Counted from the stretch's first letter, positions 1 through 4,459 are shown. The stretch is DNA of 4,459 nt from a virus (IMGVR_UViG_2648501841_000012); one strand, 5' to 3'. The notes: generated by a model from the sequence alone, not told the origin. Numbers and translations are program-made.

Positions 1-252
1 GTTCGCCAGCAGCGGCTGAAATTAAGCCTGTCCGGACGGCTGGCAATAAAAATTATTGCAGAACCACCGGATAAGCGCCGCCGTGACCTGGACAACATTC
101 TGAAAGCACCGCTGGATGCGCTGACGCATGCGGAAGTGCTCATTGATGTCGAGCAGTTGGATGAAATCAATATTGTGCGCGGTCAGCCTGTGCCAGGTGG
201 ACGGCTGGGCGTGAAGATTTACGAAATCAGAGGTGGTAACGATGGCGCGTGA
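1..252 (+). CDS. rusA: RusA-family Holliday junction resolvase, C-terminal part (5' end upstream of window)
   Basis: Frame 1 is open from base 1 to TGA at 250-252. Translation ends ...[65 protein letters not shown], which carries the RusA signature block (RRRDLDN..K...DAL...V.DD.Q) as recalled for DLP12/lambdoid RusA. Absent from the supplied ORF track only because it has no in-window start. Confidence 0.85.
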
Positions 253-613
253 TATCCAGATGGTTCTTGAGCGATGGGGGGCATGGGCAGCAAATAATCA
301 TGAAGATGTAACATGGCCCTCGATAGCTGCTGGTTTTAAAGGATTAATCCCGACTAAAGTGAAATCACGTCCTAAGTGTTCTGATGATGACGCCATGATA
401 ATTTGTGGTTGTATGGCACGATTAAACAAGAATAATCAGTATTTGCACGATTTGTTGGTGGATTATTACGTAGGTGGAATGACATTTATGGCTCTTGCAC
501 GTAAGCATAGATGTTCTGATGGGCTTATTGGTAAAAGGCTTTATAAAGCGGAAGGTATTATTGAAGGAATGCTTATGGCTCTGAATGTCCGGTTAGATAT
601 GGATATGCGGTAG
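242..613 (+). CDS. Q: Late-gene antitermination protein Q (small Q type of Qin/phage 21/933W-like lambdoid phages)
   Basis: Track ORF 233-613. I prefer ATG at 242 ([25 protein letters not shown]...) with GAGGTGG at 229-235 as Shine-Dalgarno over the GTG at 233. The N-terminal sequence is recognisably the small Q antiterminator family (memory-based, not searched). It sits immediately after rusA, the canonical lambdoid order, and its start overlaps the rusA stop by 11 nt. Stop TAG at 611-613. Confidence 0.8.
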
Positions 614-764
614 GGATATATAGTGATGAGGGTTATGTTTTCTGTGTTTATAATTAACATGTTTATTTTTTGATGGTCATGTATTGTGGAAGGTAGATAA
701 AATGTTGCCTGGTGAATTGAAAATATTGATAATCAATCTTCATCATTAAATAAAAGGAGTGCTT

Positions 765-1583
765 ATGTGGATTGTGTTAGTACTGTCACTGTCAACTCTC
801 AGTTGGCATAAGGTAGTGGCTTTTTCATTGTTGACGGTGTCTGTTGTCCTGGCTGTGCTTAATGATATTATTGATTGGTCGGTGTTATTTTTTGTTGCTA
901 CAATCGTTTTTTTTATTATTTTGAAGTTCAACTGGAAATATAACGCCTGGGCTAAATCTATATATGAAGTTGGCATAGTTTTATCAGCCATAGCATTATT
1001 TTTCCATCTATGGCCAGGGTTTCACAATCCTGTAGTGCTAAATTCTGTTACTGTTGGCCCTCAAAGTACTCCCTATACAATGTATTTTAATTTTGATAAA
1101 GCGCTGGTGCCATTTTTGTTAGTCCTGTGTACATCTTCTTTGTTTAAAAAAGAAGTAAAATCAGAAGTGTCTTTGTGGAAGTGGGGGGCTCTGTCGCTCT
1201 CTGTTCCTCTTATCCTGTTTTTGGCTGTTTTTTTTGGTGGATTAAAGCCAGAGATTCATTTTCCTGAGTGGTTGCCAGAGTTTATATTGGCTAATTTGTT
1301 TTTTGTGTCTCTGGCAGAGGAATCATTATTTAGAGGGTATATTCAATCACGGCTATCAGAAGTAACGTCTCCATTGGTTGCATTAATTGTGGCGGCTTTG
1401 TTGTTTGGTTTTTATCACTATTCAGGTGGTGCTTTACTTGTATTATTTGCCACGTTATCTGGTGTTGTGTATGGATTGTCATGGATGTGGAGTGGGCGTT
1501 TGTGGGTTGCCACCCTTTTCCATTTTGGTTTGAATCTGTGTCACTTGTTATTCTTTACCTATCCATTTTTAAAACATAATTGA
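765..1583 (+). CDS. CPBP-family (CAAX protease / Abi, PF02517-like) intramembrane glutamic endopeptidase; polytopic membrane protein
   Basis: Track ORF 759-1583. ATG at 765 with AAGGAG (754-759) 5 nt upstream is preferred over GTG 759. The protein is highly hydrophobic with multiple predicted TM segments. The three CPBP catalytic motifs occur in order: EExxxR (SLAEESLFRG), FxxxH (LFGFYHY), HxxxN (FHFGLNL). The gene is markedly AT-rich compared with rusA and nanS-p. Confidence 0.8.
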   Translation: MWIVLVLSLSTLSWHKVVAFSLLTVSVVLAVLNDIIDWSVLFFVATIVFFIILKFNWKYNAWAKSIYEVGIVLSAIALFFHLWPGFHNPVVLNSVTVGPQSTPYTMYFNFDKALVPFLLVLCTSSLFKKEVKSEVSLWKWGALSLSVPLILFLAVFFGGLKPEIHFPEWLPEFILANLFFVSLAEESLFRGYIQSRLSEVTSPLVALIVAALLFGFYHYSGGALLVLFATLSGVVYGLSWMWSGRLWVATLFHFGLNLCHLLFFTYPFLKHN

Positions 1584-1663
1584 TTTTTTCTATGGTTTTA
1601 AATTTATAAGACTGAAAAATAGCAGGACGTGACATTTGCATGAAAAATATGCACGGCAAAGCA

Positions 1664-1677
1664 TTTACGTACGTAAA
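1664..1677. repeat. Perfect 14-bp palindrome TTTACGTACGTAAA; candidate binding site for a dimeric DNA-binding protein
   Basis: Bases 1664-1677 equal their own reverse complement. An adjacent inverted repeat TGCAT-N7-ATGCA lies at 1638-1654. Both are in the intergenic region about 50-90 nt upstream of the 1725-1746 terminator. Function is not established. Confidence 0.5.
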
Positions 1678-1724
1678 AAATCAGGTATGCTGTTAAGAGT
1701 GGTTATTTCGCCGCATAGCTTGAC

Positions 1725-1746
1725 CCCGCCTCTGAGCGGGTTTTTT
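1725..1746 (+). terminator. Rho-independent terminator
   Basis: All-GC 5-bp stem CCCGC (1725-1729) / GCGGG (1736-1740), 6-nt loop CTCTGA, followed by TTTTTT (1741-1746). It lies 140 nt downstream of the CPBP stop codon. Confidence 0.65.
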
Positions 1747-1869
1747 GTGCCCGCAAAGTAGCGCAGTGCGTTAAATGTGCTGGTAGTTATTAATACAGGT
1801 CTTTCAGCTTGCTGGCTTTTTCGACAAGAGTTATTGGTGTGTCACGTTAACCGGAAAGGGTAAAAAGAC

Positions 1870-2109
1870 ATGCTGAAACAGCAGGATATGACAGAAACCG
1901 CCAGAGTTGTGTTTGATGAATTAAGCGTCACCGAACCGGCGACGGTCGGGGAGATTGCGCAGAATACGTACCTTTCACGCGAGCGCTGCCAGTTAATACT
2001 GACCCAGCTGGTTATGCGGGTCTGGCAGACTATCAGTTCGGTTGTTACAGACGCCTTCAGTCCTGAAGGCTTTTTTATTTGTGGTAAATGGGCGGCTGGT
2101 GGGTGTTAG
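1870..2109 (+). CDS. Hypothetical small protein (79 aa), possible helix-turn-helix; coding status uncertain
   Basis: Track ORF. GGAAAGGG lies 10 nt upstream of ATG 1870. Segment GEIAQNTYLSRERCQLILTQL looks like a helix-turn-helix recognition region, with weak unverified resemblance to small PapI/FaeA-like regulators. The frame runs straight through a canonical intrinsic terminator at 2053-2080 (hairpin encodes AFSPEG, T-run encodes FFIC), so a full-length translated product is doubtful. Confidence 0.4.
   Translation: MLKQQDMTETARVVFDELSVTEPATVGEIAQNTYLSRERCQLILTQLVMRVWQTISSVVTDAFSPEGFFICGKWAAGGC
2053..2080 (+). terminator. Rho-independent terminator embedded in the 3' end of ORF 1870-2109
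   Basis: 7-bp stem GCCTTCA (2053-2059) / TGAAGGC (2064-2070), 4-nt loop GTCC, followed by TTTTTTATTT (2071-2080). Confidence 0.7.
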
Positions 2110-2137
2110 CGGCACCTGTCAGTCCTTTGCTTATGTG

Positions 2138-2168
2138 TTGATGATAATTTACCTTTTGGGGCTATAAT
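2138..2168 (+). promoter_or_regulatory. Candidate sigma70 promoter for the AraC-family gene
   Basis: -35 TTGATG (2138-2143), 19-bp spacer, perfect -10 TATAAT (2163-2168), 35 nt upstream of ATG 2204. Consensus match only; the spacer is at the upper limit. Confidence 0.4.
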
Positions 2169-2203
2169 TGAACTAACCAATTGCTAATGAAAGTAAAATT
2201 ATA

Positions 2204-2917
2204 ATGGTTGTTGTCTGTTCAGTTATCATGGTTTGCTCCCCAATTAATATTTTTCTTGAAAAGGATACGTTGTCACTTAAGCCCGGCTCAGTCGTTCTGG
2301 CCACCAAATGCATCAGGGCGCTTTTCCTTATGCATTATGGCAAAGTTAAAATTTTCGATATAAACCATTCCATAGTAAGTCAATATCTGGAAATTCAGCA
2401 TAAGCTGACAAGAACTCATCTGACTGACGTTCCGCTTTATCTGTCACTGGAACCCAACAACCCTGCGTTGGCTGAGGCTTTAATTACCAGCCAGAGATTT
2501 TCCGGAGATACCACGGATATGTTTCTTATGATGGCATGCCTGTCGCTGTTTGAATCAGATGAACGGATATTATTATTTTTAAGTGGATGTTTATCCAGTA
2601 TAAGTGCCAAAGTCAGGGCGATAATTCAGACAGATATATCAGCAAGCTGGACGCTTGGTGCGATTGCGTTACGCCTGCATATGAGTGAGAGTTTGTTAAA
2701 GATAAAACTGAAAAATGAAGGGCACATGTTCAGTCGCTTGTTGCTGGAAGAGCGGATGCGTGTTGCTGTCAATATGTTATGTTCCCGGCATGGATATGGA
2801 CAGGCTGTAGCAGAAAAATGCGGTTATTCAAGCTGGTCCTACTTTATTTCTGTATTTCACCGCTATTATGGCTTCCCGCCAGACAGATATGTATCCAGGC
2901 AAGGGCTTGATTATTGA
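2204..2917 (+). CDS. AraC/XylS-family transcriptional regulator (prophage-borne; possibly PatE/Psr-like)
   Basis: Track ORF. The C-terminal ~100 aa carry the AraC double-HTH signature (WTLGAIALRLHMSESLLKIKLKNEGHMFSRLL ... GYSSWSYFISVFHRYYGFPPDRY). No obvious Shine-Dalgarno, so the start (2204 vs internal ATG 2228) is uncertain. By context it resembles the prophage-encoded AraC-like regulators described in EHEC (PatE, PsrA/PsrB); that is memory, not an alignment. Confidence 0.8.
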   Translation: MVVVCSVIMVCSPINIFLEKDTLSLKPGSVVLATKCIRALFLMHYGKVKIFDINHSIVSQYLEIQHKLTRTHLTDVPLYLSLEPNNPALAEALITSQRFSGDTTDMFLMMACLSLFESDERILLFLSGCLSSISAKVRAIIQTDISASWTLGAIALRLHMSESLLKIKLKNEGHMFSRLLLEERMRVAVNMLCSRHGYGQAVAEKCGYSSWSYFISVFHRYYGFPPDRYVSRQGLDY

Positions 2918-2935
2918 TTTTCATCTGATTATTAT
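2907..2935 (+). promoter_or_regulatory. Candidate sigma70 promoter of the tRNA operon
   Basis: -35 TTGATT (2907-2912), 17-bp spacer, -10 TATTAT (2930-2935). Predicted start around 2942, a few nt before the tRNA 5' end at 2946. It overlaps the AraC stop codon (2915-2917). Confidence 0.45.
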
Positions 2936-2945
2936 TTTTTGACCC

Positions 2946-3021
2946 AGCCCTTTAGCTCAGTGGTGAGAGCGAGCGACTCATAATCGCCAGGTCGCTGGTT
3001 CAAATCCAGCAAGGGCCACCA
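2946..3021 (+). tRNA. ileZ: tRNA-Ile2 (anticodon CAU, lysidine type, reads AUA); could be auto-annotated as tRNA-Met
   Basis: Hand-folded 76-nt cloverleaf: acceptor AGCCCTT/AAGGGCC (A1:C72 mismatch), D-arm GCTC-AGTGGTGA-GAGC, anticodon arm AGCGA-CTCATAA-TCGCC (anticodon CAT at 2979-2981), T-arm GCTGG-TTCAAAT-CCAGC, discriminator A, encoded CCA. The arms closely match E. coli ileX-type tRNA-Ile2 as recalled. The symbol follows the ileZ-argN-argO naming of Stx-phage tRNAs and is memory-based. Confidence 0.85.
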
Positions 3022-3028
3022 TCACATA

Positions 3029-3105
3029 CCGCCATTAGCTCATCAGGAAAGAGCGCCAGCTTTCGAAGCTGGTTGCGCGGAGTTCGGGTCCCCGAAGGCG
3101 GTCCA
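3029..3105 (+). tRNA. argN: tRNA-Arg (anticodon UCG), atypical T-arm
   Basis: Hand-folded 77 nt: acceptor CCGCCAT/AAGGCGG (one A:A mismatch), D-arm GCTC-ATCAGGAAA-GAGC, anticodon arm CCAGC-TTTCGAA-GCTGG (U33, anticodon TCG at 3063-3065, A37), variable TTGCG, T-arm CGGAG-TTCGGGT-CCCCG (one mismatch, G at position 58 where A is usual), discriminator T, encoded CCA. The symbol is positional (middle gene of the trio) and memory-based. Confidence 0.6.
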
Positions 3106-3118
3106 TTATCTGTATCCT

Positions 3119-3195
3119 GCGTTGTTAGCTCAGCCGGACAGAGCAATTGCCTTCTAAGCAATCGGTCACTGGTTCGAATCCAGTACAACGCGCCA
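3119..3195 (+). tRNA. argO: tRNA-Arg (anticodon UCU, reads AGA/AGG)
   Basis: Hand-folded 77 nt: perfect acceptor GCGTTGT/ACAACGC, D-arm GCTC-AGCCGGACA-GAGC, anticodon arm ATTGC-CTTCTAA-GCAAT (anticodon TCT at 3153-3155), variable CGGTC, T-arm ACTGG-TTCGAAT-CCAGT, discriminator G, encoded CCA. Resembles the argU type. Confidence 0.85.
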
Positions 3196-3209
3196 CACTT
3201 ATTTTCCCT

Positions 3210-3234
3210 GGCTCGCTTTTGCGGGCCTTTTTTT
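3210..3234 (+). terminator. Rho-independent terminator of the tRNA operon
   Basis: 7-bp stem GGCTCGC (3210-3216) / GCGGGCC (3221-3227) with one G:U pair, TTTT tetraloop, then 7 T (3228-3234). It lies 15 nt downstream of the last tRNA. Confidence 0.75.
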
Positions 3235-3375
3235 AAATGTCTCACAATTCAGGCGGTTGACTGTTGTCTGGTTTGCGGGGAGTTTGTTAAAAGAAACTGG
3301 CATGGTGAATCCCCCTGTGCGGAGGGGCAATCAGCGAGTAGGTATATGGGATAATCGCGGATTCAGGTGCTGGTA

Positions 3376-3528
3376 NNNNNNNNNNNNNNNNNNNNNNNNN
3401 NNNNNNNNNNNNNNNNNNNNNNNNNNNNNNNNNNNNNNNNNNNNNNNNNNNNNNNNNNNNNNNNNNNNNNNNNNNNNNNNNNNNNNNNNNNNNNNNNNNN
3501 NNNNNNNNNNNNNNNNNNNNNNNNNNNN
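3376..3528. other. Run of 153 N (assembly gap or masked sequence); true length and content unknown
   Basis: Contiguous n characters from 3376 to 3528. All track ORFs with poly-X translations are artefacts of this run. Confidence 0.95.
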
Positions 3529-3736
3529 CAGGGAGACGCGGGCGGCAAGGAATAAACAACAAAACGTGAAGTAATATTTCAGCTGGCGAATAATATCCGA
3601 CAGTAATCACTCTGCGCAATAGCGCGGCCTTTTTCGTATTGCGGGCTGTTGTCTCTCTTCTGCCATTGTCCTGTAACTTCCGGACTTCAGCCCGCTCCTC
3701 ATTTTACTCACAATATTATCCCGGCCGGGAGGATTC

Positions 3737-4459
3737 ATGGCATTTAAACACTATGATGTTGTCAGGGCGGCGTCGCCGTCAGACCTTGCGGAAAAGCTGA
3801 CACACAAACTGAAAGAGGGCTGGCAGCCATACGGCGGACCGGTTGCCATTACGCCGTACACACTGATGCAGGCGGTGGCTATTGAAGGAGATCCACAGGT
3901 CGGCCCTTCATCTAAGCCGGACTGGTTCTACGTGGTTGTGCTTGCCGGACAGTCCAACGGCATGGCCTACGGTGAAGGGCTTCCGTTACCGGATTCTTAC
4001 GATGCTCCGGATCCGCGCATTAAACAGCTGGCGCGCCGCAGCACGGTAACTCCGGGTGGAGAGAGTTGTACGTATAACGACATCATTCCGGCCGACCACT
4101 GCCTGCATGATGTGCAGGATATGAGTACGCTGAATCATCCGAAGGCAGACCTGAGCAAAGGGCAGTACGGCTGTGTCGGCCAGGGCTTACATATTGCCAA
4201 AAAACTGCTTCCGTATATCCCGAATAACGCGGGGATCCTGCTGGTACCATGCTGTCGTGGTGGTTCTGCATTCACCCAGGGCGCTGAGGGGACATTCAGT
4301 GCGGACACGGGGGCCAGCCAGGATTCGGCACGCTGGGGTGTGGGTAAACCGTTATATCAGGATCTGATTGCGCGCACTAAAGCTGCATTACAGAAGAACC
4401 CGAAAAATGTGTTGCTGGCGGTGTGCTGGATGCAGGGAGAGTTTGACATGAGCGCCGCC
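3737..4459 (+). CDS. nanS-p: Prophage NanS-p-type sialate O-acetylesterase (N-terminal DUF1737-like domain + SGNH/SASA esterase domain); 3' end beyond window
   Basis: ATG at 3737 preceded by GGGAGG (3727-3732). Frame is open for 241 codons to the window end, so it is absent from the track (no stop). N-terminus MAFKHYDVVRAASPSDLAEKLTHKLKEGWQPYGGPVAITPYTLMQAVAIEG is the DUF1737-type domain; WFYVVVLAGQSNGMAYGEG is the SGNH block I with the GQSN catalytic-serine motif. Homologues lie downstream of stx in Stx phages (e.g. 933W), from memory. Confidence 0.85.
   Translation, partial: MAFKHYDVVRAASPSDLAEKLTHKLKEGWQPYGGPVAITPYTLMQAVAIEGDPQVGPSSKPDWFYVVVLAGQSNGMAYGEGLPLPDSYDAPDPRIKQLARRSTVTPGGESCTYNDIIPADHCLHDVQDMSTLNHPKADLSKGQYGCVGQGLHIAKKLLPYIPNNAGILLVPCCRGGSAFTQGAEGTFSADTGASQDSARWGVGKPLYQDLIARTKAALQKNPKNVLLAVCWMQGEFDMSAA

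Follow-up and report, generated by a model that had tools for sequence, protein, structure and literature searches.

A masked interval between tRNA genes and nanS-p in an Sp4-type prophage of Escherichia coli O157:H7 probably encodes a pair of convergent small RNAs and not an empty toxin slot

In Stx phages, the toxin operon lies between the terminator of a trio of tRNA genes and nanS-p. In a 4,459-nucleotide stretch of viral DNA (IMGVR_UViG_2648501841_000012, the whole of which is referred to here as the window), the corresponding interval is short and is interrupted by a run of N, which raises the question of what occupies this interval and whether a toxin or another cargo gene could be concealed in it. 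A reading made from the DNA before any search (the sequence-only reading) had taken the roughly 500 bp at 3235-3736 for a stx-equivalent slot left without toxin, with the moron cargo moved upstream of the tRNAs, and had allowed for cargo of any kind if the N run stood for a gap of unknown size. On the evidence given below, we consider it highly probable that the window represents the segment from Q to nanS-p of the stx-negative prophage Sp4, that the slot is occupied by a convergent dyad of small RNAs (EcOnc05; EcOnc08/21), that about 100 nt without a protein gene lie under the N run, and that the place equivalent to stx is a point at 3235/3238.

The left edge of the window is the 3' end of a RusA gene, and the elements that surround the slot are as follows.

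233-613, Q antiterminator (Pfam PF06530, 126 aa)
765-1583, CPBP/Rce1-like membrane protease (Pfam)
1870-2109, short TrmB-like frame, frameshifted
2204-2917, AraC-type regulator psrA (ECs1087)
2946-3195, plus strand, tRNA trio composed of an ileZ-type tRNA (CAT), tRNA-Arg(TCG) and tRNA-Arg(TCT) (ARAGORN, Rfam); ileZ1/argN1/argO1 in Sakai Sp4
3210-3234, plus strand, intrinsic terminator of the tRNA cluster, GGCTCGC-TTTT-GCGGGCC followed by T7 (terminator scan)
3637-3736, plus strand, nanS-p leader with the Shine-Dalgarno sequence GGGAGG at 3727-3732, near-identical in 933W
3737-4459, plus strand, 5' part of nanS-p (ECs1088), DUF1737 and SASA sialate O-acetylesterase (PF08410, PF03629)

The slot is bounded on the left by the tRNA trio, in which ARAGORN places the end of tRNA-Arg(TCT) at 3195, and on the right by nanS-p, which starts with the ATG at 3737 and continues past the window edge; the distance from the trio to this ATG is 541 nt (3196-3736). 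When complete E. coli genomes were searched by megablast, both window flanks matched hundreds of O157:H7 chromosomes at 99.9-100%. Sakai Sp4 (ECs1083 to ECs1088) is 99.9% identical to window 1-3375 and likewise 99.9% identical to 3529-4459, while the corresponding locus of NCCP 13914 (L001) matches both segments at 99.9-100%. The arrangement is that of a lambdoid late-regulatory region, with Q (PF06530) followed by the tRNA trio and nanS-p, and the Sakai annotation assigns it to prophage Sp4. By these matches, the window is identified as the late-regulatory region of the stx-negative lambdoid prophage Sp4 of the E. coli O157:H7 Sakai type. Sakai Sp10 and the EDL933 prophage at 1.64 Mb, which were also considered, are related prophages at loci other than that of the window. 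Two details of the tRNA cluster were observed in passing. The tRNA at 2946-3021 that ARAGORN calls tRNA-Met(CAT) is ileZ (tRNA-Ile) in the Sakai, 933W and PGAP annotations; the CAU anticodon of ileZ is modified to lysidine. In addition, a promoter-like sequence, TTGATT-17-TATTAT at 2907-2935, overlaps the 3' end of psrA and adjoins the trio upstream, at the position of the putative tRNA promoter pT annotated in 933W.

Protein cargo of about 2.3 kb, comprising the CPBP protease, the frameshifted TrmB-like ORF and psrA, was found between Q and the tRNA trio, which agrees with the earlier placement of the moron cargo upstream of the tRNAs. The psrA gene of Sp4 (ECs1087) has been described as prophage-borne and as regulating gadE and type III secretion (PMC13502914). 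Annotations differ on its start, the Sakai coding sequence being shorter (window 2330-2917) and both PGAP and the ORF list beginning at 2204. The CPBP protease and the TrmB-like ORF each have an intrinsic terminator of their own downstream (sites listed at 1725-1746 and 2053-2076), as expected for independent morons.

The position of stx in relation to this interval was established by alignment to Stx phages. The visible window bears no likeness to stx1 or stx2, all blastn and tblastn matches being at chance level with E values of 0.065 at best, as the sequence-only reading had judged by eye for the slot flanks. When the Sp4 slot was aligned to the Stx2a phage LC645411, the alignment continued to about 3235, left out a stretch of exactly 1332 bp with stx2AB, and resumed at about 3238. 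A four-way alignment and the junction sequences of 933W and YYZ-2008 agree on the same point.

3235-3238, junction, the position of the stxAB cassette in Stx phages (alignment to LC645411, 933W and YYZ-2008)

The terminator at 3210-3234 aligns with the terminator annotated upstream of stx in 933W, where the order is argO, terminator, stxA2, stxB2, STnc100 (75 nt after stxB2), the convergent AsxR and nanS-p. In YYZ-2008 (Stx1), stx1AB is followed by STnc100, an AgvB-like sRNA and nanS-p, and in LC645411 the tRNAs are followed by stx2AB, STnc100 and an EcOnc08-type module as in the window. The approximately 450 bp made up of the sRNA dyad and the nanS-p leader are thus found downstream of stxB in all three phages. 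Since the sRNA pair lies between stxB and nanS-p in Stx phages, the stx-equivalent slot is a point at about 3235/3238 and not a stretch of 500 bp; the interval once read as an empty slot is the sRNA dyad with the nanS-p leader. The window has neither stxA nor stxB between the tRNA terminator and the dyad, where Stx-converting phages carry them, and the 3235/3238 junction is closed. The proposal of a toxin-less late region that resembles that of Stx phages is upheld.

Further comparison placed the window among known phages. With 933W/Sp5 (Stx2a) and YYZ-2008 (Stx1a), it shares the order Q, tRNA trio, terminator, sRNA dyad and nanS-p, as well as homologous tRNAs, terminator, STnc100 ends, hairpin and nanS-p leader. 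Unlike these phages, it is without stxAB, has another Q type (PF06530, 126 aa) and carries the 2.3 kb or so of cargo between Q and the tRNAs. Nil3 (AM051322), a stx-negative lambdoid phage from a bovine O157:H7 isolate, possesses the same junction of tRNAs, STnc100 and EcOnc08-type sRNA at 98.6% identity over 692 nt, but has a 933W-like nin/Q region without psrA-type cargo before the tRNAs.

We then consider the N run itself. The 502 nt at 3235-3736 consist of 349 real bases and 153 N (3376-3528), close to the earlier count of about 350 nt of real sequence. Base-by-base alignment revealed exactly 100 bases between the flanks in Sakai Sp4 and in NCCP 13914 (CTGAATTCACCGGGAGGCACCCGGCACCATGCAATGGCACATAGCGCCACTCTCCAGCCCCTCTCCGGAGGGGCTTTCTTATGGACAAAAAAAGCCCGCG). 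In 13 near-identical genomes (flank identity of at least 99.5%), taken from a spread sample of the matching complete genomes, the slot span was invariably 492-493 nt, giving 100-101 hidden nt, and the 545-nt span expected from a true 153 was found in 0 of the 13. At 153 N, the run exceeds by 53 nt what stands in its place in the relatives examined and, given the 100 bases there, is not to scale, barring a private 53-nt variant in the source; the supposition that its length is true does not hold in these relatives. Either an assembly gap whose size was estimated or a mask that altered the length could account for this. The region is common in toxin-free form: of 5426 complete E. coli genomes, 978 contain the uninterrupted 489-nt Sp4 slot at a query coverage of at least 80%, and slot spans of about 476, 945 and 979 nt were also seen in other E. 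coli. The slot region occurs in up to 14 copies per genome, and such a multicopy region would be expected to break short-read assemblies.

3376-3528, N run; the first 86 hidden nt are the 3' part of STnc100 with its terminator, and the last 14 nt are part of the minus-strand terminator

The last 14 hidden nt, AAAAAAAGCCCGCG, are the U-tail and the 3' arm of the terminator of the minus-strand sRNA. Judged from these alignments, the bases that correspond to the N run in close relatives contain no toxin gene and no other coding gene.

The left part of the slot encodes the plus-strand sRNA of the dyad, with the following features.

3264-3293, plus strand, putative sRNA promoter TTGTCT-18-TAAAAG with an upstream TG (manual reading, conservation)
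3271-3375, plus strand, visible 5' 105 nt of STnc100 (EcOnc05 of Sakai Sp4), with a CCCCT/AGGGG hairpin at 3312-3327 (Rfam, Hfq-CRAC)
3302-3375 (visible part), plus strand, frame opening with ATG 3302, translated as MVNPPVRRGNQRVGIWDNRGFRCW into the N run

The masked window alone scores 29.8 bits for STnc100 (E 9e-4), under the threshold of 47 bits, because the 3' 86 nt are N, and the unmasked twin was therefore needed. In NCCP 13914, Rfam returned STnc100 (RF02076) on the plus strand with 138 bits (E 1.5e-31) at L001 6372-6562, which in window terms is 3271-3375 followed by the first 86 hidden bases. Nil3 also scores 138 bits, and the gathering threshold of the family is 47 bits. The hidden part contains the STnc100 terminator, AGCCCCTC-TCCG-GAGGGGCT (terminator scan). 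In true coordinates, STnc100 ends about 220 nt upstream of nanS-p, a position that is the same in 933W, YYZ-2008, LC645411 and Nil3. Previous work mapped Hfq-bound RNAs in Sakai by CRAC and reported EcOnc05 at Sakai 1179806-1179914 on the plus strand, with a Northern signal of about 222 nt (Tree et al. 2014, Table S2, PMC4104026). Mapping of these coordinates places the EcOnc05 peak at window 3332-3375 plus 65 hidden nt, and the Northern probe used for EcOnc05 in that study (PMC4104026) is the reverse complement of window 3330-3364. The Northern size of about 222 nt is greater than the 191 nt of the Rfam match. The hexamers and spacing of the putative promoter at 3264-3293 recur as TTGCCT-18-TAAAAA in 933W and as TTGCCG-18-TAGAAA in YYZ-2008. 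The start of EcOnc05 is predicted near window 3300.

The window copy matches the full covariance model of the STnc100 family and shares with the family its position directly upstream of a sialate esterase gene in lambdoid prophages. Relatives of this copy include EcOnc27/sRNA103 of the Stx2 phage Sp5/933W and PasD of EPEC; PasD has been reported to be related to STnc100, with pasD directly upstream of an esterase gene (Zhu, Shabalina and Storz, bioRxiv 2026). The STnc100 copies of 933W and YYZ-2008 measure 206-214 nt, compared with 191 nt here, and differ in the central region. Effects on fimZ and espA are reported for the Sp5 copy EcOnc27/sRNA103 only. In EDL933, 11 STnc100 copies were found to be transcribed, one of them with Northern confirmation (Neuhaus 2017). 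PGAP annotates a partial 'hypothetical protein' pseudogene on the minus strand, antisense to STnc100 (L001 6391-6516; window 3290-3375 plus hidden bases), and does so in many genomes. This candidate has no Pfam match and lies inside the sRNA, and it was most likely annotated in error where an sRNA gene lies.

The right part of the slot encodes the convergent minus-strand sRNA and the conserved elements upstream of it.

3529-3584, minus strand, visible part of the convergent sRNA, EcOnc08 type (Hfq-CRAC, 7-copy alignment, fold)
3590-3619, minus strand, putative leftward sRNA promoter with -35 TTGCGC (3619-3614), an 18-nt spacer and -10 TATTAT (3595-3590)
3595-3680, minus strand, second Hfq-binding peak, EcOnc21 (coordinate mapping to Sakai)
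3612-3636, plus strand, GC hairpin CTGCGC-AATA-GCGCGG (3612-3627) followed by CCTTTTTCG (terminator scan)

The transcription start of this sRNA is predicted near 3584, and the 5' arm and loop of its terminator lie at 3543-3529. The complete intrinsic terminator is formed by 3529-3543 and the last 14 hidden bases, GCCCGCG-TCTCCCTG-CGCGGGC followed by T7. With a strong minus-strand terminator at this place, the leftward RNA ends back to back with STnc100. The sRNA has a fold z-score of -2.8, with a 5' part predicted to be weakly structured, followed by the terminator hairpin and U-tail. Conservation was assessed in an alignment of seven copies that represent six distinct sequences (Sakai, Nil3, which equals Sakai here, two Stx2a phages, PhiR5_2, 611R1 and E. 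coli H3). All seven copies keep the TTGCGC and TATTAT hexamers, the 18-nt spacer, the body and the terminator, and the terminator of 611R1 has compensatory changes. A consensus promoter scan of the window called neither the site at 3264-3293 nor that at 3590-3619; both putative promoters come from manual reading and conservation, from which we infer the start sites.

The published Hfq-binding data agree with this assignment. EcOnc08 (Sakai 1179938-1180010) and EcOnc21 (Sakai 1180016-1180101) were both reported on the minus strand with a Northern signal of about 271 nt (Tree et al. 2014, Table S2, PMC4104026). By coordinate mapping, the peaks of the EcOnc08/21/42 group coincide with the minus-strand sRNA of the window, the EcOnc08 peak covering window 3589-3529 plus 12 hidden nt, with its 5' edge (3589) about 5 nt upstream of the predicted start at 3584. 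The predicted short form is about 70 nt, in contrast to the Northern size of about 271 nt, and the EcOnc21 peak together with this Northern signal indicates a longer leftward transcript besides the short form. A candidate promoter for the longer transcript, ATGCCA-17-GATAAT at 3743-3715 on the minus strand, overlaps the nanS-p start codon. Further candidate starts of the minus-strand RNA lie near 3708, which would give about 190 nt, and inside nanS-p.

The minus-strand sRNA resembles AsxR and AgvB (Tree et al. 2014) in that it is convergent with STnc100, abuts the STnc100 3' end in the moron site downstream of PR', has the conserved TTGCGC -35 element, is short and Hfq-bound, and ends in an intrinsic terminator. 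In 933W, AsxR is likewise preceded by this TTGCGC -35, which is followed by a TAAAAT hexamer after about 18 nt. Membership of the AgvB (RF02702) and AsxR (RF02703) families was examined and rejected, with no Rfam match at E <= 1 in L001 3300-7000; the conserved 3' region of about 42 nt is missing, and body and terminator are non-homologous in the alignment. The AsxR/AgvB terminator reads GCCCGAAC..TCGGGC, compared with GCCCGCG..CGCGGGC in the window, and the body differs too. The minus-strand sRNA is a positional analogue of AgvB/AsxR outside that family. HnrS (EcOnc10-12), a 66-nt multicopy prophage sRNA, was also considered for the minus-strand RNA and was set aside by its coordinates (Sp9, Sp10, Sp12).

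The GC hairpin had been pointed out earlier at about 3614-3625 as uncharacterised. It is indeed present, but it is larger (3612-3627) and is a conserved element that overlaps the -35 of the putative leftward promoter. Its stem is conserved, only the loop differing in 933W and YYZ-2008; read on the minus strand, it supplies the TTGCGC hexamer of that promoter, and read on the plus strand, it resembles a weak terminator.

Two other views of the interval would place a protein-coding sequence in it. The view that the N run marks a gap of undefined length hiding stxAB or another moron gene gains something from the mismatch between 153 N and the 100 nt of the relatives, by which the scale may be off, and from the variable slot spans of about 476, 945 and 979 nt in E. 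coli. The flanks, on the other hand, are 99.9-100% identical to Sp4-type genomes, all of which have 100-101 nt in the sample, and on either side the N run breaks into an RNA element, STnc100 on the left and the minus-strand terminator on the right. An insert under the N run would therefore need to split a functional RNA, whereas stx in Stx phages lies to the left of STnc100 and not inside it, and stxAB, at about 1.24 kb, is far too long to fit 153 nt. The one longer variant examined, that of E. coli H3, has a second STnc100 copy and no annotated CDS. Hidden cargo is very unlikely, given that this place is taken up in close relatives by 100 nt of sRNA 3' end and terminator sequence, and we regard this view as barely credible. 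That the frame from ATG 3302 encodes a small protein, making the locus a small mRNA or a dual-function RNA, is only slightly more plausible and still very improbable. The frame does exist and enters the gap, as had been observed, but when unmasked in Sakai it comprises only 25 codons (MVNPPVRRGNQRVGIWDNRGFRCWY), with the TGA stop at hidden bases 2-4. Its intact ATG ORF and the ribosome footprints on some EDL933 STnc100 copies, with ribosomal coverage up to 3.2 (Neuhaus 2017), speak for translation, yet coverage is low on most EDL933 copies in the same study, the frame ends after 11 codons in 933W and YYZ-2008, and the conserved bases are those of the CCCCT/AGGGG RNA hairpin of the Rfam model. 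No Shine-Dalgarno sequence was seen upstream of ATG 3302, and the frame has no Pfam match. It is probably no gene but a non-conserved ORF inside the STnc100 sRNA. The E. coli H3 slot (975 nt, L012 301-1275) has two tandem STnc100 copies, one of the Sp4 type and one of the 933W type, which are about 250 nt apart with another terminator-like hairpin between them.

The remaining alternatives concern the history of the junction and the details of the dyad. It is possible, though we lean against it, that Sp4 descends from an Stx phage whose stxAB was removed by clean deletion, as opposed to a lineage that never had stx. Its flanks are colinear with Stx2a phages on either side of the 1332-bp cassette, and in 933W the stx2AB cassette lies between ATCTG direct repeats (L002 2405-2415 and 3738-3748), the right one before TCACAATTCAG. 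Gain of stx by insertion fits the same data equally well, no stx remnant was visible by blastn or tblastn, and Nil3 provides a toxin-free arrangement circulating in a separately described phage. The different Q type and the extra cargo between Q and the tRNAs also count against simple loss, and they mark the Sp4 region as mosaic. The ATCTG repeat of 933W could be a trace of illegitimate recombination. Two further readings seem improbable to us: that the source truly has 153 nt, as a private 53-nt insertion in the STnc100 3' part or between the terminators, and that the EcOnc08/21 transcript of about 271 nt begins at, or within, the region where nanS-p starts, and slows nanS-p translation in lysogens as a cis-antisense brake. 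If this brake were real, the dyad would be a Q-dependent insulator beyond being a source of trans-acting sRNAs, which would explain the conserved arrangement.

The preferred reading, a convergent sRNA dyad in the Q-to-nanS-p segment of Sp4, suggests the following scheme. Each sRNA would be made in the lysogen from its own putative sigma-70 promoter, would bind Hfq and may exert its effect in trans through base pairing. Within about 430 nt there are three terminators on the plus strand and one on the minus strand, and the plus-strand ones (3210-3234, the hidden STnc100 terminator and 3612-3636) would block read-through from the tRNAs, morons and sRNA into nanS-p and the lysis genes. Read-through past these terminators would occur only with Q-modified RNA polymerase, which would give the array a presumed insulating role. 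Convergent sRNAs between a moron coding sequence and a conserved phage ORF downstream of PR' have been described in Sp3, 4, 5, 9, 10, 11, 15 and 17 (Tree et al. 2014, PMC4104026), and a later review by Sy and Tree (PMC7873438) refers to 'dyads' of Hfq-binding sRNAs and calls the reason for the arrangement unclear. The locus is already known: Tree et al. (2014) found Hfq-binding sRNA dyads in eight Sakai prophages, and this one is that of Sp4. Its significance is small beyond correct annotation. For that annotation, the space from stx or the tRNAs to nanS-p is sRNA-coding and not an empty spacer, and an N run there hides RNA sequence and no toxin.

Two minor observations complete the description. 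In Sp4 beyond nanS-p (L001 8811-13239, L006 27131-31376), an IS629/IS1203 insertion is followed by pchA and an inverted lysis cassette, with holin, lysozyme and spanin on the opposite strand; the Sp4 late region is rearranged and, as a prophage late region, probably defective. Within the slot, the minus-strand sRNA contains GUUUUGUUGUUUAUU at 3551-3567, which we take to resemble the GU-rich R1 seed of GcvB. The plus-strand complement at 3551-3567, AACAACAAAAC, is similar to CACAACA, the consensus of GcvB targets given by Tree et al., and the same stretch varies among relatives (GTTTCATTG, GTTTTATTG).
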